This document shows positions 2,847 through 22,439 of a stretch of 33,246 nucleotides of DNA, piece after piece. A program made the position numbers and the translations under genes. A model generated the notes under the pieces. It did no database searches. It was not told the DNA's origin and saw nothing but the letters and a program-made list of their open reading frames with translations. How positions within the stretch are numbered: the stretch's first letter is position 1; every line of letters starts with the position of its first letter. This DNA comes from a bacterium (lineage in GTDB: Bacteria; Zixibacteria; MSB-5A5; GN15; FEB-12): positions 1 through 33,246 of the forward strand of contig JBDRNJ010000032.1 in the NCBI GenBank assembly GCA_043811375.1, written 5' to 3'.

Positions 2847-3281
2847 TCACCTTCGCCACTTCTTGCCATGTTTAGCCCCCTTCTCACGCAGCAAGTGAAC
2901 GACAGGAGGAAGCGTAGCAGCGATGCCTTCACGCTTGTAGTTTGCGAAGGCAGCGAAATCCAAAGGGGCGTCGCCGTTGTTGTCTAGGGCGTTGATGTCC
3001 GCACCATTATCAATGAGCAACGCCGCGACGTCCTCACTCGAGCTCGATGCAGCAATGTGTAGTGGAGTCATCTCGTGACTTTCACGACCATCGACTTCCG
3101 CGCCATTGGCCAGCAAATACTCTGCTACCTCCCGATGGTCAAAGCGTGCCGCCCAGTGCAGTGGCAGGAATCCCTCGTTATCTTTGACATTCACGAGTTC
3201 GGACTCGGCCGCAAGAAGGGACTTGACACGGTCCAAGTCTCCAAAGCGAGCAGCTCGACATAAACGGAAATCTGTTCTCAT
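2847..3281 (-). CDS. Ankyrin-repeat protein (gene cassette)
   Basis: GFLPLHWAA, MTPLHIAA and GDAPLDFAA repeats. Start moved to ATG 3281, after RBS ggag. Confidence 0.92.
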   Translation of the reverse strand: MRTDFRLCRAARFGDLDRVKSLLAAESELVNVKDNEGFLPLHWAARFDHREVAEYLLANGAEVDGRESHEMTPLHIAASSSSEDVAALLIDNGADINALDNNGDAPLDFAAFANYKREGIAATLPPVVHLLREKGAKHGKKWRR

Positions 3282-3297
3282 AGCTGCTTCTCCCTGC

Positions 3298-3726
3298 CTA
3301 GCCATCCCGCAGGGCGGTACGAGCGAAGTCCTCATGCTCGCTCATGCCCAGAGCTCGGAAGGTATTGGCCGCCTGCTGAAAATACTGCTTGGCCTCATTC
3401 TTGTCGGCGCGCTTGTGCAAATGGCCGAGTGCCATCAGCATGGTTGCTTCCTGGAGTCGGTGGCTACCTTGCCGGAAAAGTGCGAGGGCTTCGTCGTAAG
3501 CTTGCCGTGCCTCGCTGTCACGACCAGCCAGCGCATCCAGGAATCCCCGGCCTTTGAGGGCGTTACCCTTGCCCAGGAAGTCTGCATTGGTTTCGGCCAA
3601 GGCAAGAGCCTCATTGAACAGTCGTCTCGCCTTCGCCTCGTTGCCATGCACCGATAGCTCCCTCGCCTGGTGGAGGAGGGAACTTACTTTGACAGTTTCC
3701 GCTTTCACGTCGGAATCGAAGTCCAT
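3298..3726 (-). CDS. Small TPR protein (gene cassette)
   Basis: 142 aa from MDFDSD, with RBS aaggag just after the attC GTTAGGC. TPR-like helices GNALKGRG..EARQAYDEALALF and EATMLMALGHL. Confidence 0.85.
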   Translation of the reverse strand: MDFDSDVKAETVKVSSLLHQARELSVHGNEAKARRLFNEALALAETNADFLGKGNALKGRGFLDALAGRDSEARQAYDEALALFRQGSHRLQEATMLMALGHLHKRADKNEAKQYFQQAANTFRALGMSEHEDFARTALRDG

Positions 3727-3749
3727 GTGGTCTCCTTTCGTGGTTCTCT

Positions 3750-3811
3750 GCCTAACGGCTTCGGCATCAGCGGCGGAGAGCAGTGCCGTCTGCTGCATGC
3801 CGTTGTTAGAC
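3750..3811 (-). other. Integron attC site (62 bp)
   Basis: Minus strand GTCTAAC-AAC-GGCATGCAGCAGACGG...CCGCCGCTGATGCC-GAAGCC-GTTAGGC. Canonical RYYYAAC and GTTRRRY ends; GGCAT(G)CAGC pairs with GCTGATGCC with an extrahelical base. Confidence 0.92.
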
Positions 3812-3820
3812 GGTCGTTCG

Positions 3821-4501
3821 TCACGCGAAGGGGGACATGCTTCGCCGATCAACCTTCCATCGATTTCGTCTCGCCACTCGTTCCATTCCGGCAGCGAGGT
3901 CGTCAAGTTTGGAGCGAATTGGAGCACTGAAAAACCTCGTTGGAAACAAGCTCCTCGACCGATAATAACTCGTATCAGGGAAATCCAACAAACCACCCTC
4001 CCACTCGTAGTCCTTCGCCAGCAAGGGTAGGCTGGGGGAGAGTAGCGCTGCCGGATCTAGAACCAGATAGTGCACGCGTCGGTCGACGCCCACCTTGCGG
4101 ACAGTAATCATGCAGTAGTCAGGAACATCAGCGTCGAAACACTCTGCCAGCGTGACGAGGCGTCTCGCTCGCCAGCTCGTGAATGGTTCGTCATAGACGA
4201 GGACGGCACCTGCGGGTGGGTCACATTGGGATTGATAAGATCTGAGGAGTCCTCTCAAGCCCTCGAATTTGGCGGTCGGATCCCGAGTAGTCATAAGGGC
4301 GAAACGAATTCCACGTTGGGCGGACAGTGCGTTCAGCTCTGGCACGAGAACACGCTCCCAACCAAGGTCATCGTGCCACCAGGTCATCACGGTGAGGTCC
4401 CGAAGAGCAGGTGGTTCGAGGGTCAACAAGGCACTCTTAGCTAATGCCAGAATCTGCGGCGCAGGCTCGTCATCCCACAATACTACGGCATTCACGTTCA
4501 T
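3821..4501 (-). CDS. Hypothetical protein (first gene cassette)
   Basis: 226-aa ORF that fills the space between the attI-like site and the attC. Confidence 0.8.
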   Translation of the reverse strand: MNVNAVVLWDDEPAPQILALAKSALLTLEPPALRDLTVMTWWHDDLGWERVLVPELNALSAQRGIRFALMTTRDPTAKFEGLRGLLRSYQSQCDPPAGAVLVYDEPFTSWRARRLVTLAECFDADVPDYCMITVRKVGVDRRVHYLVLDPAALLSPSLPLLAKDYEWEGGLLDFPDTSYYRSRSLFPTRFFSAPIRSKLDDLAAGMERVARRNRWKVDRRSMSPFA

Positions 4502-4517
4502 CTGGTCTCGATCACAC

Positions 4518-4582
4518 GTCTAGCGACGGTTATGTGGGTTCCTCATAACACCTTTGGGCCATGACATCGCGGCATAACACCT
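4518..4582 (-). other. attI-like site
   Basis: Minus strand has two AGGTGTTATG direct repeats (4544-4553, 4573-4582), then CATAAC-CGTC-GCTAGAC just before the first cassette ORF. The layout resembles attI (DR2, DR1, L, R). Confidence 0.55.
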
Positions 4583-4845
4583 CTGCGTCAGGCTCGGCAT
4601 AGAGTGGCTCAGACAGGATCGCTTTAGCTACGAGTATAACATGGACAATATTGCTGATCTCATTAGCTTTCGCAAGCAATTGCCGTCACAAGCTACTGCG
4701 TTTGGGAGTTGAAATGGACCAAAGAATTCAGCCTCTCCGGTGGTACTCGATAGCTAATGACCATTAGGACCAGATACCAAGCAGACACTAAAGTCGAATC
4801 AAGCACTTGAACTTCCGGGGTCTCTCATGACTGCCGATTATCAAC

Positions 4846-4865
4846 GCCGTACTGCCCAGTACGGC
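4846..4865 (-). terminator. Possible terminator hairpin
   Basis: Perfect 8-bp stem gccgtact/agtacggc downstream of the 4945-5397 gene; weak U tract. Confidence 0.3.
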
Positions 4866-4944
4866 ATTCTACTGGCCGCTTGATACACTGCGCATCACCA
4901 CCGGCAAGACAAGGTGTTGACAGCTGCATGCACGTGTCAGGCGA

Positions 4945-5397
4945 CTATCCGCCTGCATTTAGCAGGTCGACGCTAGCAGTAAGGTATGCGATCAGAAGTT
5001 GAAATGAATGATACTCCTTGTCGCCACCCACCGCTTGAATCTTGGCGCCAAGTCTGTCGATCTCCCCCGAATCCCTCCTGGTCCCCGGGGCCAATAGAAA
5101 GCCGGCTGCGAGTTCTTCGGAATGGCGGGGATTGTCTAGAAGGGCGGATTCCTCCACCAAACTCACGATTCGTGAAGACACACTGGAGGAAGGCACGATC
5201 GGCATCCCCGGAATGACTTCTAAGTGCGAAGTTGAACCTGTTCGACTCTTCAAGCGAATCGCCTCTTTTAGCGCATTTACTGCCCTGTTGTCGCCACGGC
5301 GAGCTAGCCGGAGCGATTCCTCGAGAGCGTTGTCTCTAACCCCAACGTGTGTATCAAGGAGACCGTCGACCAAGCGTGCGGTCTTCTTCTTGAACAT
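4945..5397 (-). CDS. Hypothetical protein with N-terminal HEAT-like repeat
   Basis: RBS gagaggagg; LVDGLLDTHVGVRDNALEESL..GDNRAVNALKEAI. Confidence 0.75.
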   Translation of the reverse strand: MFKKKTARLVDGLLDTHVGVRDNALEESLRLARRGDNRAVNALKEAIRLKSRTGSTSHLEVIPGMPIVPSSSVSSRIVSLVEESALLDNPRHSEELAAGFLLAPGTRRDSGEIDRLGAKIQAVGGDKEYHSFQLLIAYLTASVDLLNAGG

Positions 5398-5569
5398 GCG
5401 TCCTCCTCTCCGTTAAGATCCAACTCCTGGCAATGTGATAACATGGTTTCGACACCCAAAAGCTAAACTCGCTTGCAGGACTGGAACACTGCCGAGTCGT
5501 CTCCCGGTGTAGTACCTTGTCACTGCTTTCCTCGCTTTGATGCGCGCCCACGCATATCTCGTTTCTTCA

Positions 5570-6232
5570 CTACACCGAGCCGAATTGCTTCTCAACACGC
5601 TCGGCAACATCTGGGAACTGCTGTGACATTTCCCTACGCTGCTCCTTTGAGAGCGGTGCGAAGGGGTTTTTACCCTCGCGCAGAAGCTGGAGCATGAAAC
5701 TCCGCATTATCGCCGTTTCTGCGATGCCTATGACACGTGCCACTTCATCGACATCTGGGCCATTATCAGAAAACCGAGCACCATGCTTCAAGAGGAATCT
5801 AACCATCTTGCGGCGCTCCTCTTGCTCGGACGGATCCATCGCCAGTCCCCAGGACGCGTATAGCCGGTCAGTAGGCAGCGCAGCGAAGACGTGTTTAAGC
5901 GCATTCCTGCCTTCGTTGTCCTCTACATTCACATCAGCTCCATTCTCGACCAAAAGGCAGAGCATTTCATAGTTGGCCGTTGCGGTAGCAATGTGAATAG
6001 GAGTCTTGCCATCTGAGGACTTAGCATTCACATCAGCGCCGTGCTTGATGAGCAGCAGTAGAATAGCCGGCGTGCTGTTAACTGCGTAATGGACGGGACG
6101 ACTTCCGCGCGAATCAAGGGGCGCATTTACGTCAAGTCCCGCTGACAGATGCTTCTTCACTTGCCGCAGATTTCCTTTGAGAATGGCGGCTTCAATGTGA
6201 TCGTGACTCAATCTTCTGCTGAAGATTGCCAT
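5570..6232 (-). CDS. Ankyrin-repeat protein
   Basis: GSRPVHYAV, GADVNAKSSDGKTPIHIA and GADVNVEDNEGRNAL. Start at MAIFSRR after RBS aaggagg. Confidence 0.92.
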   Translation of the reverse strand: MAIFSRRLSHDHIEAAILKGNLRQVKKHLSAGLDVNAPLDSRGSRPVHYAVNSTPAILLLLIKHGADVNAKSSDGKTPIHIATATANYEMLCLLVENGADVNVEDNEGRNALKHVFAALPTDRLYASWGLAMDPSEQEERRKMVRFLLKHGARFSDNGPDVDEVARVIGIAETAIMRSFMLQLLREGKNPFAPLSKEQRREMSQQFPDVAERVEKQFGSV

Positions 6233-6505
6233 GTGTACCTCCTTCACGGCGCAACTGTGATGGTATCGACCCGCATCTGACAACGATCAGGAGATCGCTG
6301 CCTGTCGGCAGAAGTGCTCTTCGGCGACTTATCAGACGTACGCTAAAAAACAGCTTCCGCAGATACTCTCGTTGCGCTCCTGGATTCATCTCGAAGTCCT
6401 GCACGGATCAGTTCGAAATCACTGGCTTCCAAGTCCACATCACGTTCCTACAGCGAGAGAGAGATCTCCCGCATTCACGAGAATCAGAGTCCATTTTGAC
6501 TGTCC

Positions 6506-6694
6506 TGGATTGCTCCTCATCTTTGAGCCAGTTCCGGTGAGAATTTACAGTTTCTTTGGACTGCTCCCCATCTTTGATCCAGTTCCAGTGAGAATTTACA
6601 TCTTCTTTTTTGATTATGCAACGGTGACCTCCGGGCGTTTGGATTCAGCTACAAACTCGGTTGGAGATAGGTTGTCCAGGGAACTGTCCGGTCT
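6506..6694 (-). mobile_element. IS3-family remnant with tandemly duplicated right end
   Basis: 6694-6614 reads RPDSSLDNLSPTEFVAESKRPEVTVA*, like the IS3 C-terminal RPHSSL...P.EF motif. Two 51-bp tandem copies (6506, 6557) start TGGA(T/C)TGCTCC. Confidence 0.7.
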
Positions 6695-6809
6695 ACTGTG
6701 ATTCTGGCCGAGCCCTGCGAACAAACGGCGGAATACCGCTCACGATCGCCGTAACTGTGCGGACTGCAACTGGCATTTTGTGTTCCCTTACTCGCTGCGC
6801 TGACGTCTG

Positions 6810-7325
6810 TCACGACGAGTTCCCCTTGAGTCTGAAGATCGGCAGTGACCTGAGGAATTCTTTGACGCTGCCCTTGGGTGGCGTCAACTCAAACTCTATC
6901 TCTGTATTCTTGTTCTTGTACTTGATTCTAAATCGCGTTGATAGCAACACGACGATGAGAAGCACTTGTGGAATGTCGATATTAGCGAGGATATCAGCAA
7001 GTGCGAATTCACCCCCCGCTTCCATTCCCAGGCCATCCAAGAGGCGCGTTACGGCTTCAGGTCGGCTCTCAGCATATCGCTCAACCAGTGATCGGAACGT
7101 CTGAACAAGAGCGAGATCGTCGGGTCTCTCGCGCAATGTATGGATTCCCAGGTCCTTAAGCAGCTGGTCGAGAGAAGGTGCAAATGTCTCCCTCTTTAGT
7201 TCACTCAAAGTGGTCTCTGCGATGATACCCCCCGCGCTCCTTCTCTCCTCGTTAAGAAGCCAGATGGTAAGGCGTGCGACATCCGCATCAGACAACCACG
7301 CTATCCTCTGCTGCAAGTCTGTCAT
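6810..7325 (-). CDS. CHAT-associated hypothetical protein (171 aa)
   Basis: ATG overlaps the CHAT gene stop (ATGA, 7322-7325). Helical N-terminus, then a hydrophobic segment, a basic beta-like segment and an amphipathic tail. Confidence 0.85.
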   Translation of the reverse strand: MTDLQQRIAWLSDADVARLTIWLLNEERRSAGGIIAETTLSELKRETFAPSLDQLLKDLGIHTLRERPDDLALVQTFRSLVERYAESRPEAVTRLLDGLGMEAGGEFALADILANIDIPQVLLIVVLLSTRFRIKYKNKNTEIEFELTPPKGSVKEFLRSLPIFRLKGNSS

Positions 7326-10300
7326 AACCAGTCTCCCGTTAAAAAGTAAGGACTCCAATGCAATAATGAGCTAAATCTATCATTGCGGATCATCTCTGTT
7401 TGCGCCTCTTTAAGTGCTCCACTCTTTCCAGCCTCCGGGTTAGACAGCCAGTTGCTGTAGAATACCTTCATGAAGAGACATTTGGATTCAGCATTTACCG
7501 GCCATAGCGAGTGGAGAATGGAAGGCGCTCGCGAATGGAGCAGAGACCTCGTCATGCCAATGAGTTCATCGCCGGGCTTAATCTCCGCTCGACCTATTTC
7601 GCATGAGCTCAGTGTGATTAAACGACAGCGAAGTGACAGATTCATCCACTCCCGAGCGGAAAGAAATGCGCCAGAATCGATGGTTTCAAGGAAACGATCC
7701 TTGTGTGGTCTCTGCGGGAAGTCTCTGCCGTCAGTTAGCAATACGCCTGTGGAGGCCATCGTGTCCTCAGAAACCACCATGTAACCGTGTGCAGCCAAAT
7801 GAATGCAATCACATTGCCGCATTTCATCGAGCACGCGTACTCTGGAGCAGTCCGTACCGGTCAATGCGTTCACGTTGAGGAGCTTTCCTATTGCCTCTGC
7901 CTCTTGTTGTACTGACTTCTGATAGCGGCCGCGGTCGTCGCGAGCCCATGTCCCGCACACAAGTGGGGAGGTAATCCTGGTATCCTCTTGTCGGGCGGGG
8001 TTGTTACGACGACAGAACGGTAGTGTCGAGGCGGACGGAAGGTATGTCACCTCGAATCGTTCAGCACAGTGTTTGGTTGCACCATCTATTCGAATCCTCA
8101 TTGCATGAAAAGGGAAATAATGCAAGTATCCATGTGGGACAATATATAGAAGCCGCATGTCCTTGAGCTGCTCGACAACCGGATCAAGAAGGAGCTTTCC
8201 AAGCCCCAGGAAGCCTTCTACGCTCTGATCAAAGCTGTCAGTATCGAGCGGATTCGCCTGTGCGACGGCCGTATATAGATTGACCCACTCCCGCTTCCAG
8301 TACTTGCTGCCATGAGCAAGCTCATGAATATGGACCGTTGGATCATCGCCAGCGATAGCAAGAACATAGGTATGATCGTCGTCGGTGAAATACTCAATTA
8401 GCGCTGTGTCAGGATCTAGATGTGCGCGGATATCCTTCAGCTGACTAGGTGTTCCGCGTCGTGTAGATACATATTCGGGGTAGCTATCCTCCATTTGATC
8501 GTATATCTCTTCGAGTTCATTCCATACGTTATGCTCGACTTCGTCAACGTTCTGCTCGACGAGCGAATCTGAGCTCGCAGGCCTCTTCAACTCGCTGATT
8601 TCGGACAGACAGGTTGTCTCCCTCTCAAACAGTTGAGCGTGGTCGCCGCTGATGGGAGTTGGGCGGTGCAGATCGCCGGCGCCGAGCATATCAAGAAGAG
8701 TGCGGGACTTGCATGATTCAATGAATTCGAGGAGCTTTTCCGGTGCATCACCGTTGGGGAGAGGAATTCCTCGGCGGTACATCTCCATTAGAAGCGCAAT
8801 CCCGTCACTATATATGGACTCATGTGATCCTAGAAAACTGATTTTCAATTCCGGATATAGTGCTGTTTGTCTGCTCCTATCGATGTTCTTGATTCCCTCT
8901 TCATAACAGAGAAACGCCTGCTGTTGTCGAAGGACTTGATTCTGAGTATCAGCTCGTATGAGCGCCTGATACGTTTGTCCGAGCTGATGTCGGAACCCGG
9001 CATCACAGGAGGTGCGAGAATTCACCTCCCTAAGGAGCATTTCAGAAGTGCTCAGATTGCCCATTGCTTTTTCGGGTGAATCGGCAAGCTCGGCAATGTA
9101 GCGGAACACGCTTCCTTTGACCGCGAGTATCTGAAACAGGTGGTGTTGATTTCCGATAGATCGGGCAATTGCCGTAGCTTCGTCAAGAAGCCTCAGACAG
9201 CCCCTCAGTAGTCCCACATTACGAATGCGGCGGCCTTGCACCGACTGAATGTGAGCAAGTCCCGTGATCGCTCTCATTTCCATTGACCGCTCCATGTGGG
9301 CTCGCCGATAGAAGTCGACAATCCTATTCTGGTGTTCAATGGCTCTGCTAATCCATTCCTCGAACTCGGTGTCATCACCGGCTCGCTCCGCAATGCTAAA
9401 ACAACAAGTGGCGAGATTCCCATTGTCTTTAGCCACATTTTGGAGAGATCGATATTGAATGTCAATGCCGAGTGCCTGCTCGTGATATGCAATAGCCTTC
9501 CGAAAATCACCGAAATGAGCATAGCAAATGCCGATATTGCCTAAATTGTGAGCTACGCTCACAACATCGCCCAGTTCACTCCCTAAAAGGGCAGCTTTGC
9601 GGCTCACGTCGATAGCTTTGCCGTAGAGGCCGCTATTCAGCAATATAAGTCCTCGATTGGTAAGTATGTGACATCTGCCTCGCGGAAGACCTGCCTTGAT
9701 GTAGAGGTCGAGTGCACGCTGATTGAACCTCAGTGCGTCCGTGTATTCACTACGGTCCATTGCGATGAAAGAAAGCAGATTGTCTAGTCCGGCATGCTCG
9801 ATTTCTGCACCTCGATCAGGAAGTGTTCGCCGTGCCGCCTCGCTCTTCCTGACAGCGTCATCGAATCGGCCGCGCCTTTGAAATGTCAAAGCTTCTGTAA
9901 CCAGTCTTTCATACTCTTCCCATGCACTTCTCAAGGCCGGATCACTGTGCATAGATATACTGATGTTGTCTTTCGATTGTTTTTCCTTGTCTAGCTCGGC
10001 CAGCCACTCCTTCCTGTACTCTGAAAACGTCTGTCCCATGTCAATACGGTGTACCGCAGCCTCCGCGAGCGGATTATGCGGTGAGTGCGCCAGTGCTTCC
10101 TCCAGGTTTCGGCGTGCTGCTCCGATGTCACTTCTAGCCCACGCTGCGACGCCGATGAATGCTTCGGCTTCGGAACGATATCGGCCAGCGAGCAACTCCA
10201 GCTCCCGGGGCGTCTCGGCAAGTCTTGCTGAATTACTTACAGCCTCAGCATCACTTGAGAGTTGAACCACTTCCTTTCCAAGAGCCACCATGCGGTCGAA

Positions 10301-11695
10301 GTCGCCCTTGTTCATGCAGATGGACGCGCCCGTTAGCCTGGAGTTGATGTACTTTGGTGCAAGTTTTGCAGCGTTCTCAACTGCCTTAAGAGCTTCATCG
10401 TACAGTTCACTCCCCTCCAATGTGATAGCCAGGTCATTGTAAACCCGGGCGATTTCTGAGTTAGGCAGATCATCGGTATGCTCAAAACATGTTCGGAGAC
10501 TCTTTATCGCCTTATCATGAAACCCAATTCGCCTATAGCATCCACCGAGAAGCCAGTGGATCATAAAAAGGACACCGCTATCTGAGCATTCAGGAATGGC
10601 CTTCCTGAAATTGGTGATGGCTTCGTGGTAGTCGCCGTGATTGAAAGCATCAAAACCAGCCTTAGCGTTGTGCGAGAGCTGACCATACTGGAATAGAGGT
10701 TTCTCTTCTGGTGATGCAGGGACAATCGGCGGGCTTAAAGCAGCATCATATCTACGAGCATTTTCGAAACACTCATTGGCTTCCTTAAGTCGATTGAGTC
10801 TGATGTAGACCATGCCGCGTTCATAATACGCTTGCGCGTAGTCGGGCTTCAAGCGAATCGCTTCACTGTATTGCTCTAGGGCTTCGTCGTACCTACCTTC
10901 TGAGGAATAGTACCCGCCAAGATTGAATCGGACCGAGGCCGTGTCAGGGACGAGCTGAACAGCCTTCTCATAGCATTCACCAGCTTGCTTGATTTGGCCG
11001 ATCTCCATAAGTGCATTCCCCTTGCTATTCAGGACGTTTCTGTTGCGAGGGTTAATCGCAAGGGATTCTTCAAAGGAAGTCAGGGCTTGCTGGTACTGTC
11101 CCATCTCATATTGAGCATGACCTTTACCTGCCAGGGCGTCAGCGTTATTCGGATGGTGCTGCAAACAGACATCGAAGCTTGAAAGGGCTTCAGTTGGACC
11201 ATCTGTCTGGAGAAGGGTAAGTCCTTTGTTGACAAGCGCGATCTCATAGCTCGGGTTTAGCTTGAGGGCGCGATTCAGAGAGCCAAGAGCCAGCTCCAGA
11301 TCTCCGATCTCTTTGTGACAGGTCCCTTTGGCGGTTAGAGCCTCTACATCATCTGGATTGGTTTCCAGCGTCCGCTCGAACGCTACGAGCGCCTCCCTGA
11401 AGAGCTTCCTGTCGAGCAGAAGAAGCCCCTTGTTATACCATGCGAGAGGGAATGCTGGATTAAGCCGCAAGGCTCTCTCATAGCACTCCAACGCTTCATC
11501 ATCGCGACCGAAGTGTCGAAGAACGTTTCCCTTATCAGACCATGCAATGAAGAAGTTGGAGTCTTTGCGTAACACTTGTTCAAGACAGGACAGGGCGTCG
11601 TCATACTTGCCTCTGCGGATGTATTCGATCGCATGCTTGTATTTAACTGGGGCATCGCCCATTGGATTGAGAAGTCGACCAATAAAGGAACCCAT
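7322..11695 (-). CDS. TPR-CHAT (caspase-like clan CD) cysteine protease
   Basis: Many N-terminal TPRs. CHAT motifs IVPHGYLHYFPFHA, IHLAAHG (His), ITLSSCEIG (Cys), SLWPV and HWSPYFLTG. Confidence 0.96.
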   Translation of the reverse strand: MGSFIGRLLNPMGDAPVKYKHAIEYIRRGKYDDALSCLEQVLRKDSNFFIAWSDKGNVLRHFGRDDEALECYERALRLNPAFPLAWYNKGLLLLDRKLFREALVAFERTLETNPDDVEALTAKGTCHKEIGDLELALGSLNRALKLNPSYEIALVNKGLTLLQTDGPTEALSSFDVCLQHHPNNADALAGKGHAQYEMGQYQQALTSFEESLAINPRNRNVLNSKGNALMEIGQIKQAGECYEKAVQLVPDTASVRFNLGGYYSSEGRYDEALEQYSEAIRLKPDYAQAYYERGMVYIRLNRLKEANECFENARRYDAALSPPIVPASPEEKPLFQYGQLSHNAKAGFDAFNHGDYHEAITNFRKAIPECSDSGVLFMIHWLLGGCYRRIGFHDKAIKSLRTCFEHTDDLPNSEIARVYNDLAITLEGSELYDEALKAVENAAKLAPKYINSRLTGASICMNKGDFDRMVALGKEVVQLSSDAEAVSNSARLAETPRELELLAGRYRSEAEAFIGVAAWARSDIGAARRNLEEALAHSPHNPLAEAAVHRIDMGQTFSEYRKEWLAELDKEKQSKDNISISMHSDPALRSAWEEYERLVTEALTFQRRGRFDDAVRKSEAARRTLPDRGAEIEHAGLDNLLSFIAMDRSEYTDALRFNQRALDLYIKAGLPRGRCHILTNRGLILLNSGLYGKAIDVSRKAALLGSELGDVVSVAHNLGNIGICYAHFGDFRKAIAYHEQALGIDIQYRSLQNVAKDNGNLATCCFSIAERAGDDTEFEEWISRAIEHQNRIVDFYRRAHMERSMEMRAITGLAHIQSVQGRRIRNVGLLRGCLRLLDEATAIARSIGNQHHLFQILAVKGSVFRYIAELADSPEKAMGNLSTSEMLLREVNSRTSCDAGFRHQLGQTYQALIRADTQNQVLRQQQAFLCYEEGIKNIDRSRQTALYPELKISFLGSHESIYSDGIALLMEMYRRGIPLPNGDAPEKLLEFIESCKSRTLLDMLGAGDLHRPTPISGDHAQLFERETTCLSEISELKRPASSDSLVEQNVDEVEHNVWNELEEIYDQMEDSYPEYVSTRRGTPSQLKDIRAHLDPDTALIEYFTDDDHTYVLAIAGDDPTVHIHELAHGSKYWKREWVNLYTAVAQANPLDTDSFDQSVEGFLGLGKLLLDPVVEQLKDMRLLYIVPHGYLHYFPFHAMRIRIDGATKHCAERFEVTYLPSASTLPFCRRNNPARQEDTRITSPLVCGTWARDDRGRYQKSVQQEAEAIGKLLNVNALTGTDCSRVRVLDEMRQCDCIHLAAHGYMVVSEDTMASTGVLLTDGRDFPQRPHKDRFLETIDSGAFLSAREWMNLSLRCRLITLSSCEIGRAEIKPGDELIGMTRSLLHSRAPSILHSLWPVNAESKCLFMKVFYSNWLSNPEAGKSGALKEAQTEMIRNDRFSSLLHWSPYFLTGDWL

Positions 11696-11701
11696 TACTC
11701 G

Positions 11702-13939
11702 TCATTCTCCACTGTGGCTCTCATACAACGCCAGATTGTACCGTGCAACTTCGTTATTAGGATCAATACGCAGCATCTCCTTCCATGCCTCGCATGCCCG
11801 GCGTATATTCCGCTCCTGCACGCTGATCGCTGCGACATTGCCATGAGCAGGTAGGAAGTCAGGATCATGCTCAATAACCCGTTCGTATTCCTCCAGAGCC
11901 AGTCCTGTCTGCTTCCAACGGAGGTAGATCCCTGCCCGATTGAAGCGGGTCATTGTCATCGAAGGGTCAATCCTCAGTGCTTGGCTATAGCATTGTTCCG
12001 CCTCCTCCCACCGCTCGAGCCTTCCGAGAGCATTACCTTTGTAGGCTCGAGCTTGAGCGCACTCCGGATCTATCAGAATAGCTGCCTCGCAAGGCTTAAT
12101 CGACTCCTCCCATTTTCCTGCAGTGTAGAAGAGCCTTGATTGGCTAAGTAGAACATCCACCGTGGTCGCTGAGTCACTTCGAGTGCTCAGGTCGCGCTGA
12201 TATTCGGTTCGTTTTTTCTCCTCCCACGCCTTATAGGGACCTCCTGCTTGTTTCTTGCTTTCCCCAACCGCCTTCGCCTGGCGTATGACCTCGTCAGGGT
12301 TATCTATGTGAGTGAGTTTCGCGATCTCCCGCATGGCTTCTTCATCGTGTCCCAGCAACTGATACGCAGCGACTAAATTCACTCGTGCAAGGCTATTCTC
12401 CGGGTCAATCTCAGCGGCCCTCCTGAGGTAGCGCAGGCCCCTGTCGTTGTCCTTCATCTTGATATAGCAAGCTCCTAGAAATGCGTGAGCCTCAACGTTA
12501 CTCGGATCAGCTGTGATGACCTTCTCATATACCTCTGCGGCTTGCTTCCAGTCATTTCGGATTCCGTGGCACTTGCCTATCATGAAGAGGGCCTCCTTGT
12601 TCTGCGTATTGTTGTATAGCTCGGCCTCAAATTCAGGTATCGCTTCAGAGAATCGTTCCTCGGCGAATAGCGCCTGCCCAAGTTGAAAGCGCGTATCTCT
12701 GAAACCGCCGTCGATCTCGAGTATCTGTCTGTAGTACTCAATCGCACTGCTGTGATTGCCATGGCTCATGTGCAGCGCCCCCGCTGCATATCGTGGCAGC
12801 AAATAGGAAGGATCGATCCGGATTGCCTCGTTGAAATGAAAAAGGGCGTCTTCGGCACGGTGAAGATTCTGAGTCATGACCCCCAACTGATGGTGCACAC
12901 GTGCAAGATAGGGAACTTCTTTGAGGTCATAAAGAGAGTACAATTCCCACGGATCAGCATGATCGATTTCGAGCGCTCTCGCGTACCACTTCTCGGCTTC
13001 CTCACAGTTTCTTTGATCCCAGTAAAGATCTGCAAGAAGCAATGGAGCGATATGATAACGGGGATCGATCGATACAACAGTCTGAAGCTCCCGGATGGCT
13101 TCATCAGGAAGCTGCTCTCGTCCCTTCGCATAGACTATAGCCAAGTTGTAATGGGCTTCTATACAGCACGGATCAAGTTGTAACGCCCGCATATATTCGG
13201 ATATCGCTCGGTCGTAGTTGCCGAGCGCGTAATAGGTGAGCCCAAGTTGAATATGAAACCCGGAATCATTCCTACCTGCCTTTTGGTCATCCGGCGCTTC
13301 TGCGGAATCACTCCCCTTGCTTTCATCAGAGAGAAACGAGGCACTATCACCTCCGGCGGCAGTCGGAGCGTCTTTACACTGCCCCAGGGACTCCCGAGCG
13401 CCGCCGTCTAAACTTTGTGGAAGCACACCGGCTTCGCGGTTGTTTGGATCCGATTCAAGCACGTCTTCTGTATCCCTGCGAGCTGCTGTTTCGAGTTCCA
13501 TTATCGCACTGGTTGTACGAATCCACATTCGCTTGTCGGGCGTAGATGCCTCCATGAGGTTATTCAACGGCATGTTAAGCTCCTCGAAAGTATGCTCAAA
13601 CCTCCTGCCGCCAGACCGCGTGTACCGCTCTCTGATTTCATTAGCTTTCGCCCGATACGCGCTGGCCCGCCCCATCTTGGCATCGATGTGCAATTGACCA
13701 CCCGGCTCGATGAGCATCGAGTAGTCTTCGATGGCCGAGTCCCACTCTCCCAGAATGCCGTACAGACCTGCCCGAAGAAGCCGAACCTCTTCGGAGCCCG
13801 GTAAGAGGGCCAGGGCCTTGGAAAGAATCTTAATCGCCACTTCGTATTCGTGCCCTTCCATCTTCGAGCGGGCTTGTGCTGCCAACTGGCGGACTCTGAC
13901 TTCCTTGTCTTTGCGTCTGAAAATGTCGAGAAGACCCAT
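11702..13939 (-). CDS. Large TPR-repeat protein
   Basis: Canonical TPRs throughout with an acidic low-complexity linker. Likely start MGLLDIFRRK at 13939. Only 6 nt separate it from the CHAT gene. Confidence 0.93.
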   Translation of the reverse strand: MGLLDIFRRKDKEVRVRQLAAQARSKMEGHEYEVAIKILSKALALLPGSEEVRLLRAGLYGILGEWDSAIEDYSMLIEPGGQLHIDAKMGRASAYRAKANEIRERYTRSGGRRFEHTFEELNMPLNNLMEASTPDKRMWIRTTSAIMELETAARRDTEDVLESDPNNREAGVLPQSLDGGARESLGQCKDAPTAAGGDSASFLSDESKGSDSAEAPDDQKAGRNDSGFHIQLGLTYYALGNYDRAISEYMRALQLDPCCIEAHYNLAIVYAKGREQLPDEAIRELQTVVSIDPRYHIAPLLLADLYWDQRNCEEAEKWYARALEIDHADPWELYSLYDLKEVPYLARVHHQLGVMTQNLHRAEDALFHFNEAIRIDPSYLLPRYAAGALHMSHGNHSSAIEYYRQILEIDGGFRDTRFQLGQALFAEERFSEAIPEFEAELYNNTQNKEALFMIGKCHGIRNDWKQAAEVYEKVITADPSNVEAHAFLGACYIKMKDNDRGLRYLRRAAEIDPENSLARVNLVAAYQLLGHDEEAMREIAKLTHIDNPDEVIRQAKAVGESKKQAGGPYKAWEEKKRTEYQRDLSTRSDSATTVDVLLSQSRLFYTAGKWEESIKPCEAAILIDPECAQARAYKGNALGRLERWEEAEQCYSQALRIDPSMTMTRFNRAGIYLRWKQTGLALEEYERVIEHDPDFLPAHGNVAAISVQERNIRRACEAWKEMLRIDPNNEVARYNLALYESHSGE

Positions 13940-13965
13940 ATTTACACTTCCAATAATGGACCATT

Positions 13966-14517
13966 CTAGGTTTGTTGCAGCAGCGTATTCAGCTTGACCG
14001 AAACAGCCCACGAGGGGAGGGGCTCGCTCGGTGTACATTCTCCCGGAAGTACTCGACAGCAAACAGACTCAAAGTGGCTAAGGTATATGCGATTATCAGG
14101 CTGTTGGAGGAGGATTCGCCGAATCGGCGGATTAACTTCGAGTTGGGTGTTGACTGCGGCACGGCGGCCCGCTACCAGGAGCTGAGACAGGCACTTATCA
14201 CCAATCGCTAGATTCCCGATGATCTGAATGGCACACTTGTGAAAAGTTCTAGCAGACATCTGCTTCTCCGCCCATAGCTCTTGGTTCTGTCGCGTGAGCT
14301 GGGTAACCTGTCTCTGAAGCCCTGCTTCGTTAGATGAAGTACGACTCCCGGTGATGCACTTCCAGAATGCGAAGGCTCCAGCGAGCATCACAATGACCAA
14401 CGGAATCGCTACCTTAGGCTGAATTGATGTGGCTTCCCCGACAGTGCGTGCTTCTGGAATTGCCTGTTCGGCTGGGCGCATGTCGCCAGACTTCTTAGGT
14501 GATAACTTGCCAGTCAT
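13966..14517 (-). CDS. Hypothetical single-TM protein
   Basis: TM helix VAIPLVIVMLAGAFAFW followed by a short coiled coil; co-oriented with the cluster. C-terminal half uncertain. Confidence 0.55.
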   Translation of the reverse strand: MTGKLSPKKSGDMRPAEQAIPEARTVGEATSIQPKVAIPLVIVMLAGAFAFWKCITGSRTSSNEAGLQRQVTQLTRQNQELWAEKQMSARTFHKCAIQIIGNLAIGDKCLSQLLVAGRRAAVNTQLEVNPPIRRILLQQPDNRIYLSHFESVCCRVLPGECTPSEPLPSWAVSVKLNTLLQQT

Positions 14518-14628
14518 GGTTCATACCCCGTAATCTGCCTTCGCAAAAAGGCATCAGCACCGGCGTCACCTTCGGATGTGGAGCGCAACTGACCAGCCGT
14601 CGGTTGCGTACCATTCTTAGCCGTAGAA

Positions 14629-14889
14629 TCAACCCACATACATCCACATCTGAAAGGCTTCGAATTGCGTTCCTCCACAGTTTCTACACCCACCAATCAT
14701 CCCAAACCCAAATCCTTGGCAATACTCGCAAGTGAGATCGCCGCATTGGAGGCACTTCATTGTTGTGCATGGATGTCGTGTCCGCGTGGGCGTGATATCT
14801 CCACGCTGGACCGGCTCAAGAGGCTGGCCACACTGGGAACATCTCAGTCCAGTCCAGAAAACGGATCTTAGAAAGCGACGAATACCCAT
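14629..14889 (-). CDS. Small Zn-binding protein with four CxxC motifs
   Basis: CSQC, CLQC, CEYC, CRNC; RBS gaggag. Confidence 0.8.
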   Translation of the reverse strand: MGIRRFLRSVFWTGLRCSQCGQPLEPVQRGDITPTRTRHPCTTMKCLQCGDLTCEYCQGFGFGMIGGCRNCGGTQFEAFQMWMYVG

Positions 14890-14995
14890 TACTTCTCCTC
14901 ATGATAACATTGGGCCGCGAGCGTTCCTATCCACCCATGCAAGGTATGACGGTTGTGAGACCGCCCACGCAGACAACTTGCCTTTGGGACATTGT

Positions 14996-16627
14996 TCATC
15001 CTGCAAACCGCCGCCATTTCTCCAGAAATACTTGAGCTAATCGCTCGCATTCACACAACCTTGCTTCCAAATCCGTGATGTTAACCAACTGCTCAATACC
15101 CGGAAGACTACCCACTAAGCGAGTTTGATGCGCCGTTTTCCACGCGTTCGGTAGATCTTTACGGGCATTCCGGAGCGCGCTGAGACATCGTTCAAGGTAA
15201 CTCGCGACCTCTGGCGGCAAGCTGCCCTCGCGATATCTGACGACCCTCAGGGCATGAAGTGCCTCTCCAGCCGTGTTCAGGGCTGCAACGAAGCCATCAA
15301 TGGCGGCTATATCAGAGGCAACGGCCCGCCATGCCTCTGGAGAGCCATGCTTAGCCTCAAGTGCTCCTTTCGTCGCTGAGAGGATACCCGCCGCGGTTGC
15401 CCTTCTCATATTCAATGCCTCCTGGACATCTTCCACGCATCTCACAAGGGTCCTGAGGGCTCCGAGTACCTCACCGACTCGTCCAAACGCATTCTCCGTT
15501 TCTAGGCGCAAAGCTCCCGAACGAAACTCATTCTGCAACTCTGTTTTGCCTGGGCCAACGCCTGTGCAACGCTGCCATCTCTGCCCCAGTATTACGCCCC
15601 AAAACAGGGAAATGGTACCGAGCAACACGAAGACTTCAAAGTAGGGAATAGGAAATCCGCCAATGCCGCCGACGAATGTTGTTTGCGCTTCTACTGTTAG
15701 TCCGAAAAGGAGAAAGAACATGAGCAGAGCGACATACTGACTGCGCTCTCCATGAACCCACTTGTCCGGGAGGTTACTGATACCACGCCTTGCTGACCAA
15801 TAACCGATCGAACCGATCATCATGATCGCCACATAAAGGAAAATCGATAACCCTACATATGCCCCTTCCCGTGCGGCTGCGAGTACAGGATTCGTAGCGA
15901 AGTAGATTGCGACAGATGACATCCATGCCACTGTGCACGCTCTCTCATCAAACACCTTTGAAATACGTCGGTGTCCCAGAAACAAGAATAGGCTTACACC
16001 CAGCAGCAGAACCACTATGAGAGCGGGTATACTTGACAGCCAGTTCACATAGATCCGGGCCAAATGCGGCTCCATTCCGCCGGGGCTCAGAAAACCCCAA
16101 GGGAAGTAGTAGATTGAACCGCTGGATACAAAGAGCATGACCAACACATATGACATGCCCAAAGCGACCAAACCATCGAAGATCCGCGCGCTGAAGCCCA
16201 TAAGGCGATATCGAATGATTCTTGCTATTGGATATGCCACAGCCGCAGGAACAAGTAACAGGATTGCACTCTTGAGATCCTGGACTAGTTTCCAGTCTAG
16301 ATGACGGCCGAGACTGCTGCTGTTATCGATGAGTAAGGCGGCAATCCCAATCCAGAGAAGGAGGTCGATTCTTGCCTTGCCGCGCCAGAAGAAGCGACCC
16401 AGTGCATAGCCGCTGGCGATTGCAGCGAATCCAGCCGCCAAATAGATAACGTGAAAATCCGAGGTAAGAAGTTGGAGCATTCCGTAGAGCAAGAGAACGA
16501 TGATCACAAACCCGATTCTCTTGGACTGTGCTGCTGCCAATCTACCTATTAGACCACACAAAAAGAATAGCGTGAAGGACACTGCGGCAAAGGCAGCTAT
16601 ACCGAGAATCCCAAGCATAAGTTTCAC
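14996..16627 (-). CDS. Polytopic membrane protein with C-terminal helical soluble domain
   Basis: About ten or more hydrophobic segments in the first ~350 aa, then an Ala/Leu/Glu/Arg-rich helical region. Confidence 0.85.
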   Translation of the reverse strand: MKLMLGILGIAAFAAVSFTLFFLCGLIGRLAAAQSKRIGFVIIVLLLYGMLQLLTSDFHVIYLAAGFAAIASGYALGRFFWRGKARIDLLLWIGIAALLIDNSSSLGRHLDWKLVQDLKSAILLLVPAAVAYPIARIIRYRLMGFSARIFDGLVALGMSYVLVMLFVSSGSIYYFPWGFLSPGGMEPHLARIYVNWLSSIPALIVVLLLGVSLFLFLGHRRISKVFDERACTVAWMSSVAIYFATNPVLAAAREGAYVGLSIFLYVAIMMIGSIGYWSARRGISNLPDKWVHGERSQYVALLMFFLLFGLTVEAQTTFVGGIGGFPIPYFEVFVLLGTISLFWGVILGQRWQRCTGVGPGKTELQNEFRSGALRLETENAFGRVGEVLGALRTLVRCVEDVQEALNMRRATAAGILSATKGALEAKHGSPEAWRAVASDIAAIDGFVAALNTAGEALHALRVVRYREGSLPPEVASYLERCLSALRNARKDLPNAWKTAHQTRLVGSLPGIEQLVNITDLEARLCECERLAQVFLEKWRRFAG

Positions 16628-17013
16628 CCTGGATCTCCCAAGATCTGCTTGACCGACGCCCTATGTTGCGACGAGGCCAACAGCAATTAGATGGACCCAC
16701 ACATAAAATGTACATCCCCTCGTTCCTGTGCATATACGACGCACTTGGCTAGTCTCTCGAGGACGTAAGAAAGCTCCCCATTCCATAGGGTTGCAGTTGG
16801 CACGCACACCTTCCACGACATGGCACGCGGATCGGCATATCGGTCTTCTTTTTGCACACCGCAGGAGTGCATACACTTGATGGCATCTTCCGAACCCGCG
16901 TGCGTACGGCACAAGATCTTTCATTCCTTTGGACAATAAGCAGAAACTAGCTGGACTACGCCCAGGAGTCAAGCTATATTTATAACACGATACCATAGTC
17001 AAGGCGGATGGAA

Positions 17014-17187
17014 ATGCCAAGAGAAAAAACAACTCATACGAAACCTAAGATGATTCACATTCGACTGAGTGAGGATTTGCACCAGCAACTGAGAATCCAA
17101 GTGGCAAATGAAAATCAGACTATTCAGGACTGGGTAGAACAGCTAATAGACGAAAACGTCAAGCCGGGGCGAAGGAAGCAGTCTTGA
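17014..17187 (+). CDS. Ribbon-helix-helix (Arc/ParG/HicB-like) protein, not in the ORF track
   Basis: Hand translation MPREKTTHTKPKMIHIRLSEDLHQQLRIQVANENQTIQDWVEQLIDENVKPGRRKQS*. Confidence 0.8.
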   Translation: MPREKTTHTKPKMIHIRLSEDLHQQLRIQVANENQTIQDWVEQLIDENVKPGRRKQS

Positions 17188-17196
17188 GTCTTGTAA

Positions 17197-17466
17197 ATGG
17201 TGAAAAGAAGCGTTGCTACATTAATGCGAGGCTTTCCGCTAAGGACCAGCACCGGCGCGCCTAATACTCCCTCACTGGAAAGCCAAGAGAAGGTCTGCAA
17301 GGCAAACATCACCAGCCAGGAATCGAGCGGTTGGGAGTACGTAAGCACGACTGAAGATCTCGGCTCTGGCGGCAGCACCGACCGGCTCGGATTGAGTGAG
17401 CGTCTCAAACATATCAAGCAGGACAAAGTCGACGTTGTCGTCACGATCAAGACGGATTGGCATTGA
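17197..17466 (+). pseudogene. Degenerate serine recombinase N-terminal domain
   Basis: KRCYINARLSAKDQ in one frame, then SLESQEKVC..SQESSGWEYV..EDLGSGGSTDRLGL..DKVDVVVTIKTD in another. Truncated. Confidence 0.8.
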
Positions 17467-17849: not shown

Positions 17850-17876
17850 ATGCGGGGTTGACGAGACTCGAACTCG
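17850..17876 (-). other. att core: tRNA(Asp)-like 3' fragment (copy 2)
   Basis: Identical to 1500-1526. Confidence 0.8.
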
Positions 17877-18033
17877 CCTCGGGGCGTTTTCGTAACCGAC
17901 TGCTGCAGGGCGACTTACGGAGACAACTTGTCGACTAACAATGGCTTGGGGCGCTGTTCTTCTTCAAACTGGTTTAAGTTGTTTTGAAGTGTTTTGAGTT
18001 GTTTGTACGAACAGATGTCAAAAATACGTCAAA
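17850..18033 (+). repeat. 184-bp direct repeat, copy 2
   Basis: Colinear with 1500-1683 at an offset of 16350. Confidence 0.95.
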
Positions 18034-18550: not shown

Positions 18551-20179
18551 ATGACATCAAGTAGATTGTATTCACAAGTTCTCGGCTATTATGACTTCAC
18601 AGGGAATCCTCAGGTAGTGAATCCAATGGAAGTAGGTTGTGGTGTAGTGGATAGCAACATCACGCATGTTCACGAGACAACACATCGCATATTGGCATCG
18701 TCGACAACAACCGGTCATTTGGTACGGTTGCTTGTCGAGGGACGGAAGCATTTCCCGCAAGACATGCAAGCCGATCTCAATGAAACCGTCCGACACATAA
18801 TTGAAGCTTGCCGCATGCCGCATGAAGCAGCCGCGACCTACTTCAGTCTGCGTTCTGCCGCAGCCTCGCATGTGGATGTGACACGCGAACACCTAGCTGC
18901 TTTGCCACAGTATTATCGTGACGCAATATCCTATTTTGAACAGGCCATAGGGCCAATTCTCGACGGTGGCACAATTGCGGACCAGCGGGCTATTCAGGCC
19001 ATCGTCATGACTGTGACCAGGCTTTCACTCAATGTGCCAATTGGGGGGTTAGACGGATTCCGGCGCCTGGCAGATGTACGGTCGCTCATCAGCAGCGACA
19101 ACCCGACGGAAAGGTTCGAGTGCCTGGTAGATTTAATGAAGGCCAAACATTTGACACCTATTCTCCACGAAGAAATATCAAATACGCTAACAAGATACAT
19201 TGGTGACGACTGGCGTGACGACGTGGCCAGAATTCCGTACTCGGATATAGGTTCTCATTTTCAAGAGGCATGTGAACATATGGGCCAACTGTTCTTGGAA
19301 TTAGATGTTCCGTTCAAAATCGTGTTGGAATCACAGGTACTCGATGAAATCGAAGCATTTGGCTCGCAACCATTTAGTCCGTATTGGGAAGGAACGGTGT
19401 TTACAAAAGTGCGCGATGACCCGAACACTAGCGAGGTCGCCTTGCATCCGGGGCATCCGAACCGGCCTAAGGACTATGCCATCGCGAAGAGATACATGCC
19501 CGGTAGTGTCGAGGACATCCGCAACGCAGTGAGCGATGCCAGCAGAGAAGGCTTCCTGTTTGTGCATGTCCGCCGACCAACGCACGCATCTCCGGACGTT
19601 TTCGAACTTCTCGCTGAGCGCCTCACTGACGGGATTGGAAACAGTCGTATATCATGTACTCTTGAGATGGGACATCTCTGGTTTTTCCATGATGCAAACC
19701 CCGAAAGAGTCGCGCTCAAGATTGATGAGCGATTGTTTCGTTCGCCAGAGTGTAGACAGTTCCTTATGCTATTGGATAACTTCTCAATCCCGATATTCGT
19801 ACTAGCACATGAGACAACGGCAGATCGCATGGCAAAGTGGTTGGAGACGGAGCTGAAGCGGTTGCGAGACGACTACATGGTTTTTGCTCAACACATAGTA
19901 GTCTCAGATTCAGATACGCCAGAAATTGAATCCCTTTGCGTGGCTATCGCTGGTAATGAGCGCGACGGTCTTCGATATTCAACGCTACTGGTACCATCAG
20001 AAGTTGAAAAGTTGGTCGACATGTTTCTCGCCTGCCCTACCTCAGGGTCTGTGTACGCACCCACCTTCAGCTCAAAGAGAAGTGAAGACACACGTATTCA
20101 TAAGCGCTTTGAGAGATGGGCTCTCGGTGAGATAACTCAGAAGTTCATTGTCTGCACTTATCTAGATGATGTTGAATAG
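18551..20179 (+). CDS. HExxH putative zinc metallopeptidase-like protein
   Basis: VHETTH plus a downstream EAAATY (possible third ligand); RBS ggag. Confidence 0.75.
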   Translation: MTSSRLYSQVLGYYDFTGNPQVVNPMEVGCGVVDSNITHVHETTHRILASSTTTGHLVRLLVEGRKHFPQDMQADLNETVRHIIEACRMPHEAAATYFSLRSAAASHVDVTREHLAALPQYYRDAISYFEQAIGPILDGGTIADQRAIQAIVMTVTRLSLNVPIGGLDGFRRLADVRSLISSDNPTERFECLVDLMKAKHLTPILHEEISNTLTRYIGDDWRDDVARIPYSDIGSHFQEACEHMGQLFLELDVPFKIVLESQVLDEIEAFGSQPFSPYWEGTVFTKVRDDPNTSEVALHPGHPNRPKDYAIAKRYMPGSVEDIRNAVSDASREGFLFVHVRRPTHASPDVFELLAERLTDGIGNSRISCTLEMGHLWFFHDANPERVALKIDERLFRSPECRQFLMLLDNFSIPIFVLAHETTADRMAKWLETELKRLRDDYMVFAQHIVVSDSDTPEIESLCVAIAGNERDGLRYSTLLVPSEVEKLVDMFLACPTSGSVYAPTFSSKRSEDTRIHKRFERWALGEITQKFIVCTYLDDVE

Positions 20180-20376: not shown

Positions 20377-20882
20377 ATGACGGCCGAACCAGACGATTTC
20401 TTTGACGGAAGCCTATTTGACCCGGTGACACTGGGTCTGCATGTTCCCCCATCGGTCTTGACAGGTGGAGGCGACACAACGCGTTCCGACTTGGCCAAAG
20501 ATGAGCTACTTCTGCACGACTCGGGTGTGTTCGTCCATGAACTCACGCATTATCTACAGTTCCATGGCTCATGGTTCGGATACTACTGTCTCTTCCATTC
20601 CCAACTCAAGACGCACTTCTTCCTGAAGTTCTTGCGCCACCTTTGCCAAACAAAACGGCTGGTGCCACCGGTGGCCTATCACTATCCCATCGATACCGAC
20701 AGGGTTTCTGATTTCATTGCGCAGGAAGACGATCAGTCAATCTTTCTCAGAATGCTGAATGCCGAGCGGTATTTCCAAGAAGAACTCTATGGCTGGAATT
20801 ACCCGTACCTGTCCATGCATCCGCTGTATGAAGACAGCAGGTGGGTCAAGCAATCTTCCGTGTTGTATCTGGGCGTTCAAGG
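20377..20882 (+). pseudogene. Second HExxH protein, probably truncated by an IS end
   Basis: VFVHELTHYLQ. The ORF reads on to 21096 but crosses an IS-end-like sequence at 20883. Confidence 0.6.
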
Positions 20883-20908
20883 TGTATGTCTTCAGACAAA
20901 GTGGACAA
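20883..20908 (-). repeat. Orphan IS3-like terminal repeat
   Basis: tgtatgtcttcagacaaagtggacaa matches the reverse complement of IRR 102-127 at 20/26 positions. Confidence 0.65.
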
Positions 20909-21041
20909 TTGAACACCAAGAGTTAAGCCGGGTTCCGGCTGAGGGAAACGACATCGCCGCGGGGCCAAAGCCACCTACTGTGTTTACTTCAGACTCCGAT
21001 CGAGCAACCATTCATGCGGGATTTACAAAAAGTCCAAAAGT

Positions 21042-22429: not shown

Positions 22430-22439
22430 CTCACGCCTC

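Follow-up and report, generated by a model that had tools for sequence, protein, structure and literature searches.

We report the analysis of a 33,246-nucleotide stretch of DNA from a Zixibacteria genome (the window, which makes up the whole of contig C32; the genome measures 3.56 Mb and is 95% complete) and of a pair of genes within it, encoding a tetratricopeptide repeat (TPR) protease with a CHAT domain and a 171-residue partner protein. The 40 dockerin-like motifs counted also suggest Zixibacteria. The evidence supports a core made up of this TPR-CHAT protease and its partner, perhaps together with a 745-residue TPR protein. On balance we lean towards a protease-gated membrane effector, in which sensing by the TPR repeats would lead to a cut near Glu102 of the partner and release a membrane-damaging C-terminal piece. 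An earlier note on this DNA had proposed that six co-oriented genes form a caspase-like signalling or defence system; all six open reading frames (ORFs) are indeed found on the minus strand at the coordinates which that note gave (6810..16627), and it is the last two of these that concern us most here.

The protease gene (7322..11695, minus strand) encodes 1457 amino acids, of which about 850 form TPR repeats that lead through a helical linker to a C-terminal CHAT domain at residues 1165-1455 (nucleotides 7331-8203; Pfam CHAT, E 1.6e-45). The domain scores 156 bits against a cut-off of 24, is preceded by TPRs and carries the His-Gly and Cys motifs of the family. We take His1303 (HLAAHG; 7787..7789, minus strand) and Cys1365 (LSSCE; 7601..7603, minus strand) to be catalytic on the strength of the CHAT/caspase family motif; both, along with Gly1304, are conserved in a full-length orthologue (P0020; 702 of 1444 residues identical, 49%), in agreement with the intact His/Cys dyad claimed earlier. 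By sequence, the CHAT region has no relative in the PDB at E 0.01, and no Csx29 chain was found there. Only 6 bp separate the protease gene from that of the 745-residue, TPR-only protein upstream (11702..13939, minus strand, ATG at 13939; Pfam TPR), which leaves no room for an attC site of the kind described below, and the TPR protein may therefore be a third component, a sensor or regulator. Its start at 13939 is also the one called in the protein collection, where it forms a singleton cluster.

The partner (6810..7325, minus strand) belongs to an unnamed family of 16 sequences, comprising the window's protein, 12 relatives from a full HMMER search (29-43% identity) and three more from an alignment search; the latter recovered only 4 of 13 input sequences besides the 3 new ones, so that its misses mean little. 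The alignment used has 15 rows, a shortened sequence (P0013) being excluded. In the AlphaFold2 model (predicted local distance difference test, pLDDT, 81.5) an acidic helical domain at residues 1-99 is followed by a loop at 100-108, hydrophobic helices at 109-129, a beta-hairpin at 132-147 and an amphipathic helix at 151-165. Five residues are invariant in all 15 rows (W22, R78, L99, A103 and G104) and position 102 is Glu in 14 and Asp in one. A near-invariant L-x-x-E-A-G loop thus divides the acidic helical domain from the hydrophobic helix and the basic beta-hairpin, and in the window's protein this stretch, L99-G-M-E102-A103-G104 (7014..7031, minus strand), is the predicted cleavage loop. 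It stands directly before the hydrophobic helix in 15/15 members (Kyte-Doolittle 1.53-2.15), and net charge runs from -3 to -14 in the N-terminal part and from +1 to +7 in the tail. These features, together with the predicted complex described below, make the partner the predicted substrate and effector of the protease.

The two genes are coupled in that the partner's ATG overlaps the stop codon of the protease gene (ATGA, a 4-bp overlap). The same arrangement recurs on a second, 1391-bp locus (L006), where the start of a relative that is 34% identical to the window's partner (P0011) falls within the stop codon that closes a CHAT C-terminus, the ending of which is near-identical to that of the window's protease; coupling is therefore seen in 1/1 relatives with readable context. 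Among 63 other CHAT loci, drawn from the window's genome, its phylum, the phylum of genome G285, one genome contig and five plasmids, none had a first co-oriented downstream ORF matching the partner profile (best E 0.028), two of these loci having almost no downstream sequence and one having been matched at the N-terminal CHAT region. Since the partner accompanies CHAT in two loci and in 0/63 elsewhere, it is probably tied to a narrow clade of CHAT proteases. The same results bear on whether the neighbourhood is a matter of chance, a TPR-CHAT protease with other targets merely adjoining a small membrane protein. The pair is known in two loci only and cassette arrays do juxtapose unrelated genes, but the identical ATGA overlap in an independent and much diverged relative, and a predicted complex that scores far above its controls, make such a coincidence highly improbable.

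Several observations on neighbouring and similar loci belong here. In L006 (616-1391) the gene after P0011 encodes another TPR protein, where the window has an ankyrin gene. Three further CHAT proteins are encoded in the same genome (contigs C65, C64 and C14; loci L001, L003 and L004), none with a partner, and two of the three genes adjoin, by eye, ECF-sigma-like and anti-sigma-like genes. A search of genome contigs with a DNA pattern of the CHAT C-terminal motif returned six loci, one unrelated CHAT gene and five chance matches, and the CHAT orthologue fragment found nothing in viral contigs. On a Streptomyces plasmid (Streptomyces sp. NBC_01483, NZ_CP109439.1; L040, 4213-8038) an unannotated TPR-CHAT gene is overlapped by a frameshifted small gene with a layout like that of the partner (helical N-terminal part, hydrophobic helix, beta-hairpin, helix); its comparison with the partner fell short of significance (hhalign probability 0.1), and we do not treat this small gene as a homologue; its viral match (L042) lies antisense to a capsid-like gene.

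Prediction of a complex between CHAT residues 990-1457 and the partner gave a score of 0.85, against 0.00 for the best of three controls. Of 157 solved complexes 116 pass the score mark applied, as do 2 of 215 mismatched pairs; these figures are only rough when custom alignments are used. At least 92% of contacts agree between runs and the partner's pLDDT is at least 80; the tool reports no atom distances. In the predicted interface, partner residues 100-108 lie with CHAT residues 1301-1305 and 1363-1366, which include the catalytic His and Cys, while R18, W22 and helix 107-115 of the partner lie with CHAT residues 1138-1158. The conserved basic CHAT residues R1255, K1332, R1369 and K1405 fall within this interface and would fit an acidic P1 residue; taken with the conservation of the loop, they suggest Glu102 as the likely P1. 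Among the columns of the partner alignment, those that form the interface show the higher conservation (0.62 vs 0.47 elsewhere; permutation p 0.0013). The complex prediction supports binding of the partner by the protease, and the earlier note's proposal that the protease acts on its small neighbour gains support from the second coupled locus, the conserved loop and the predicted fit to the active site, cleavage itself being a prediction.

An occupied active site is also what would be expected of a pseudo-substrate, and the partner might instead be a substrate-mimicking inhibitor or antitoxin. The protease would then itself be the toxic effector, cutting proteins of the host once its partner had disappeared or been pushed aside. 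Inhibitor genes typically lie downstream and are translationally coupled. Against this, all 15 members retain the hydrophobic helix, the alternating beta-hairpin and the basic tail, features that for the most part fall outside the predicted interface, and an acidic P1 followed by Ala-Gly looks cleavable. We regard an inhibitor as unlikely.

The protease-gated effector that we favour would work as follows. A signal, probably a phage protein, would bind the TPR array, possibly helped by the 745-residue TPR protein. The CHAT domain would then dock the partner through an exosite, helix 1138-1158, facing Arg18 and Trp22, and through loop 100-108. A cut at or next to Glu102-Ala103 would remove the acidic helical N-terminal domain and, by analogy with the EACC1 effector discussed below, the remaining basic fragment of about 7.5 kDa (hydrophobic helix, beta-hairpin and amphipathic helix) would enter the inner membrane and oligomerise. 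The infected cell would be killed or arrested by the freed C-terminal piece. Cleavage could in principle serve the opposite end of the molecule, acting as a non-lethal switch: the helical domain at the N-terminus would come loose from a membrane anchor and work on another protein or on DNA. That domain does carry conserved residues (W22, R18, R28 and R78), and SAP and death-fold domains are among its weak structural matches (Z at most 3.4), but those Z values are at background level, R18 and W22 are already accounted for as docking residues in the predicted complex, and a Pfam scan found no sigma factor or regulator near the pair, so that a switch of this sort seems improbable.

A number of points weigh against the protease-gated effector. 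The conservation test is not independent, since its alignment was also an input to the complex model. For CHAT the excess of conservation at the interface over the remainder is slight (24/40 vs 215/428, from two sequences), a likeness to solved caspase-substrate complexes may contribute to the predicted fit, and the fit of the loop in the modelled active site suits an inhibitor equally. Only one independent coupled locus, L006, is available, it holds just 27 CHAT residues, and the locus of the full-length orthologue P0020 lay outside the sample. The hydrophobic helix is marginal as a transmembrane segment in some members (down to 1.53). Finally, a role in defence is suggested by context and analogy, and no PADLOC model covers the pair.

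The partner matches no named family in the libraries that we searched. The 13 family members compared with Pfam gave no family better than E 0.09, PADLOC gave no meaningful match for 15 members, and no relative was found in the PDB by sequence. A single-sequence word search among 273 candidates returned the partner itself only, and searches of 60 relatives, of another 284 genomes of the phylum, of 401 from the G285 phylum, and of viral contigs and plasmids brought up no copy; one match in genome G247 (E 0.01) looked antisense and was dropped. In structural comparison, Foldseek gave no match to the model at E 0.001, and the best VIA-align hit had a Z of 3.4, with none at or above 5 among 48,161 chains. 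Death-fold chains appeared at a background level (Z 2.1-3.1; best the NLRP14 PYD at Z 3.1, rmsd, the root-mean-square deviation, 2.9, 65 residues aligned), and no gasdermin chain was listed among the fold matches of this mostly helical model with its one hairpin, a result that does not by itself exclude a gasdermin fold. The ESM Atlas matched the partner to 30 clusters, all without a name (0.94 for the top three), and to a single structural look-alike (TM-score, the template-modelling score, 0.66); when restricted to named entries it gave no usable match. No description of the partner was found in the literature searched, a scope that did not take in most subscription journals, bioRxiv supplements or the supplementary lists of Kaur 2020/2021 and Evans 2025. 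The earlier note had not recognised a named system, and none was matched in any of these libraries or texts; the effector family thus appears to be undescribed within them.

The closest comparison is with the EACC1-caspase pair, the two-gene System 4 of Kaur et al. 2020 (PMC7159879). The sections of Evans et al. 2025 (PMC12642450) used here describe for EACC1 a single cut, at a modelled Asp49, that yields an N-terminal piece without toxicity and a toxic C-terminal piece of 7.1 kDa; only the cleaved form causes liposomes to leak, and only the C-terminal fragment is toxic. Our pair likewise has two genes, a caspase-family protease fused to a variable sensor and a small non-enzymatic partner with a single hydrophobic helix followed by beta-strands, an acidic residue at the predicted cut and a C-terminal piece of about 7 kDa. 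In contrast, none of 13 family members matches the Pfam EACC1 profile at E up to 1, and, whereas the EACC1 gene is described as lying 5' of a protease with an N-terminal caspase domain (PMC7159879), our partner gene is 3' and its protease carries a C-terminal CHAT domain. The N-terminal part of the partner is also all-helical and about 100 residues long, where that of EACC1 is a short alpha+beta piece, and its helix is without the central glycine patch of EACC1. By analogy, then, the pair would function much as EACC1-caspase does, but it differs in profile and in the order of genes and domains.

The partnership of a TPR-CHAT protease with one dedicated, co-encoded substrate is also reminiscent of Craspase, in which Csx29, a TPR-CHAT protein, is paired with its substrate Csx30. 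Unlike the type III-E Craspase locus, the window contains no Cas7-11, CRISPR array or sigma factor that we could find, and the absence of cas genes, of a cyclase and of a recognisable gasdermin reported earlier is borne out by Pfam, PADLOC and NCBIfam; similarly, neither a CRISPR-like repeat family nor an Rfam match was found in the window. Gasdermins are activated when a protease removes a short C-terminal peptide, whereas here an N-terminal domain would be lost; the partner, at 171 residues with one beta-hairpin, differs from them in build, and no Pfam, NCBIfam or PADLOC gasdermin model matches any of the six ORFs. In CATRA/CATASP systems the protease bears CATRA domains and its partner is a CATASP protein, while the C-terminal 592 residues of our protease (866-1457) contain only CHAT and no CATRA. 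What is shared with bacterial gasdermins that adjoin a TPR-CHAT or caspase-like protease is the prediction that the neighbouring protease licenses a latent membrane effector (PMC12642450). A small gene adjoining a protease is likewise described for Pepco (Trypco) and CATASP, but the partner has no Pfam match to either, and Pepco is presented there as a pre-formed beta-barrel cut in its C-terminal tail (PMC12642450). The EACC2 and death-like systems have other layouts, as far as the relevant part of PMC8195603 describes them.

The remaining genes of the six-gene block tell a different story. A canonical attC site (3750..3811, minus strand; GTCTAAC ... GTTAGGC; repeat family D4, fold z -3.1), recognised by what we take to be the attC consensus, came to light through a repeat at 2800-2840 and 3780-3820; by custom scan it is the only one in the genome. 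A two-arm scan finds four sites in the window (ending at 3811, 2831, 4942 and 14622), all on the gene strand and between ORFs: the canonical one, two decayed copies at 2772-2831 and 4877-4942 (minus strand) and a third decayed copy (14551..14622, minus strand) that matches the canonical site at 32/42 arm positions. The last of these exceeds the best background score of 30 in 7.05 Mb of other contigs, while the 4942 site, with 28, is within the background range on that score alone. These calls come from custom scans rather than IntegronFinder; a profile built from the three left-hand sites missed the 14622 site, which the two-arm scan recovered. Upstream of the membrane protein gene described below and between it and its CxxC neighbour, attC-like hairpins were no better than shuffles (z 0.24 and -0.03), and across the genome the best score to NF011946, which we take to be the integron integrase model, was 62 bits against a cut-off of 435. 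With attC sites on the gene strand and between ORFs, one of them within the six-gene block, the most plausible interpretation is that the block belongs to a decayed integron-like cassette array.

At its upstream end the block opens with a gene for a 543-residue orphan membrane protein (14996..16627, minus strand) with eight hydrophobic segments followed by some 190 soluble residues. An 86-residue protein with four CxxC motifs comes next (14629..14889, minus strand; strong ribosome-binding site AGGAG, atypical codon score), encoded by an ORF that stops 6 bp before the decayed attC at 14551-14622 and is likely to be its own cassette. The third ORF (13966..14517, minus strand; 183 residues) had been described as a single-transmembrane protein and has one hydrophobic segment within its first 100 or so residues. 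Between 14034 and 14174 on the plus strand, the DNA is a decayed left end of an IS21 insertion sequence (IS) with a 5' fragment of istA that has lost its start codon (73% identical to contig C29 along 141 bp, E 5e-15; the genes compared on C29 are IS21 istA and istB, above cut-off); by alignment, the similarity reaches roughly from 13985 to 14200. As istA is matched here on the opposite strand, residues of about 105-175 are antisense read-through, and this ORF is likely a broken gene, a chimera, and not the intact component that had been supposed; its exact sequence is absent from the protein collection. None of these three proteins, nor the partner, belongs to a family in Pfam, NCBIfam, PADLOC or PHROG. 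With the queries used, no homologue of the membrane protein was found in the 284 other genomes of the phylum, plasmids or viral contigs, nor any of the CxxC protein in those genomes or plasmids. Codon scores gave no separation of real from spurious ORFs among the short ones.

It follows that three of the four upstream genes are likely to be unrelated and partly decayed cassette cargo. Were all six genes one system, the membrane, CxxC and single-transmembrane proteins would sense and relay a signal through the TPR protein to the protease, and the genes are indeed all co-oriented, with promoter-like sites not above chance (7 found vs 11.3 expected; a terminator scan was likewise at chance level). 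The decayed attC between the second and third genes and the IS21 remnant that breaks the third interrupt the block, five further orphan ORFs, interspersed with attC sites, share the same orientation, the TPR-CHAT protease has no predicted transmembrane segment, and no homologue of the first or second gene was found in the 284 other genomes to show co-occurrence. A six-component system is accordingly very unlikely, and the membrane sensing that the earlier note proposed is likewise unsupported. The claim of close spacing stands for the 745-residue TPR gene and the protease (6 bp) and for the protease and partner (the 4-bp overlap), and not for the remaining gaps of 106, 111 and 26 bp.

Arrays of attC sites that have no integrase are known as CALINs. 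Compared with typical integron cassettes, the 7-kb, three-gene unit of the TPR protein, protease and partner is much larger. Co-oriented orphan ORFs separated by attC sites are a feature shared with integron cassette arrays, described in PMC12409362 as stores of defence genes; here most attC sites are decayed and no integron integrase was found. Since large multi-gene systems are absent from integrons according to the part of that review drawn on here (PMC12409362), the 7-kb unit may have reached the array in some other way, which counts as a further point against the reading that we favour.

The array is itself carried on an island. Two 184-bp repeats (1500-1683 and 17850-18033), 82% identical and 16.35 kb apart, form its left and right boundaries, and each opens with 25 bp identical to the 3' terminus of the tRNA-Asp gene on contig C27, followed by an arm of about 160 bp. 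Inside the right end lies the island's own serine resolvase (17197..17466, plus strand; Pfam Resolvase, E 2.7e-07), a fragment broken by stops and frameshifts, directly before which a short ORF (~17005-17190, plus strand) looks by eye like a ribbon-helix-helix regulator. An intact serine recombinase (177-1511, plus strand) has its stop codon within the left tRNA-Asp core (1500-1526). The presence of two such cores (1500-1526 and 17850-17876), each followed by the same arm, suggests integrative elements in tandem. The island inferred in the earlier note is therefore real, its cargo amounting to 11 co-oriented ORFs and not six. The five further ones (2847-6283, minus strand) are orphans: two ankyrin proteins, a short TPR protein, and proteins of 150 and 226 residues without a family. 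The gap 3' of the partner (6284-6809, 577-bp) contains a 51-bp tandem duplication (6506-6607), and a hairpin lies at 6280-6336 (z -3.4); an IS3-like remnant suspected between the partner and the ankyrin gene was unsupported (best E 0.18).

Beyond the island, two adjacent ORFs of 542 and 239 residues (18551-20179 and 20377-21096, plus strand) have no Pfam match and one HExxH motif each (HETTH and HELTH), and are possibly a metallopeptidase pair. The minus strand from 21356 to 25163 encodes a lipoprotein-like protein of 907 residues with eight PEGA domains and a 376-residue protein with a weak glycanase match; an IS481-like transposase follows at 25225-26169. In the neighbouring island, a 1044-residue NACHT and HEAT-repeat protein (26313-29447, plus strand), whose N-terminal 230 residues are without a family, is a candidate for NLR-like defence. 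A repeated IS occupies both contig ends (31872-33246 and 1-175), and one copy interrupts, at about 31870, a gene for an ABC-transporter ATPase.

Substrates are known for few bacterial caspase-like proteases, and here one such protease is found beside a partner with predicted docking and cut sites; the same locus is also an example of a decayed cassette array that looks like a multi-gene system. More tentatively, the partner could be the founding member of an undescribed family of protease-gated pore-formers, with an all-helical autoinhibitory domain and cut after Glu by a dedicated clade of TPR-CHAT proteases, the 745-residue TPR protein being a second sensor. Such a family might be one branch of the wider unnamed group seen in the Atlas (the 30 clusters, at about 0.94, with Actinomycetota the commonest phylum in the top three). 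If the protease-gated effector that we favour is right, the pair would extend the ten protease-linked modules covered by the survey in PMC12642450 by a further family of effectors, and may give a name to a large set of hypothetical proteins.

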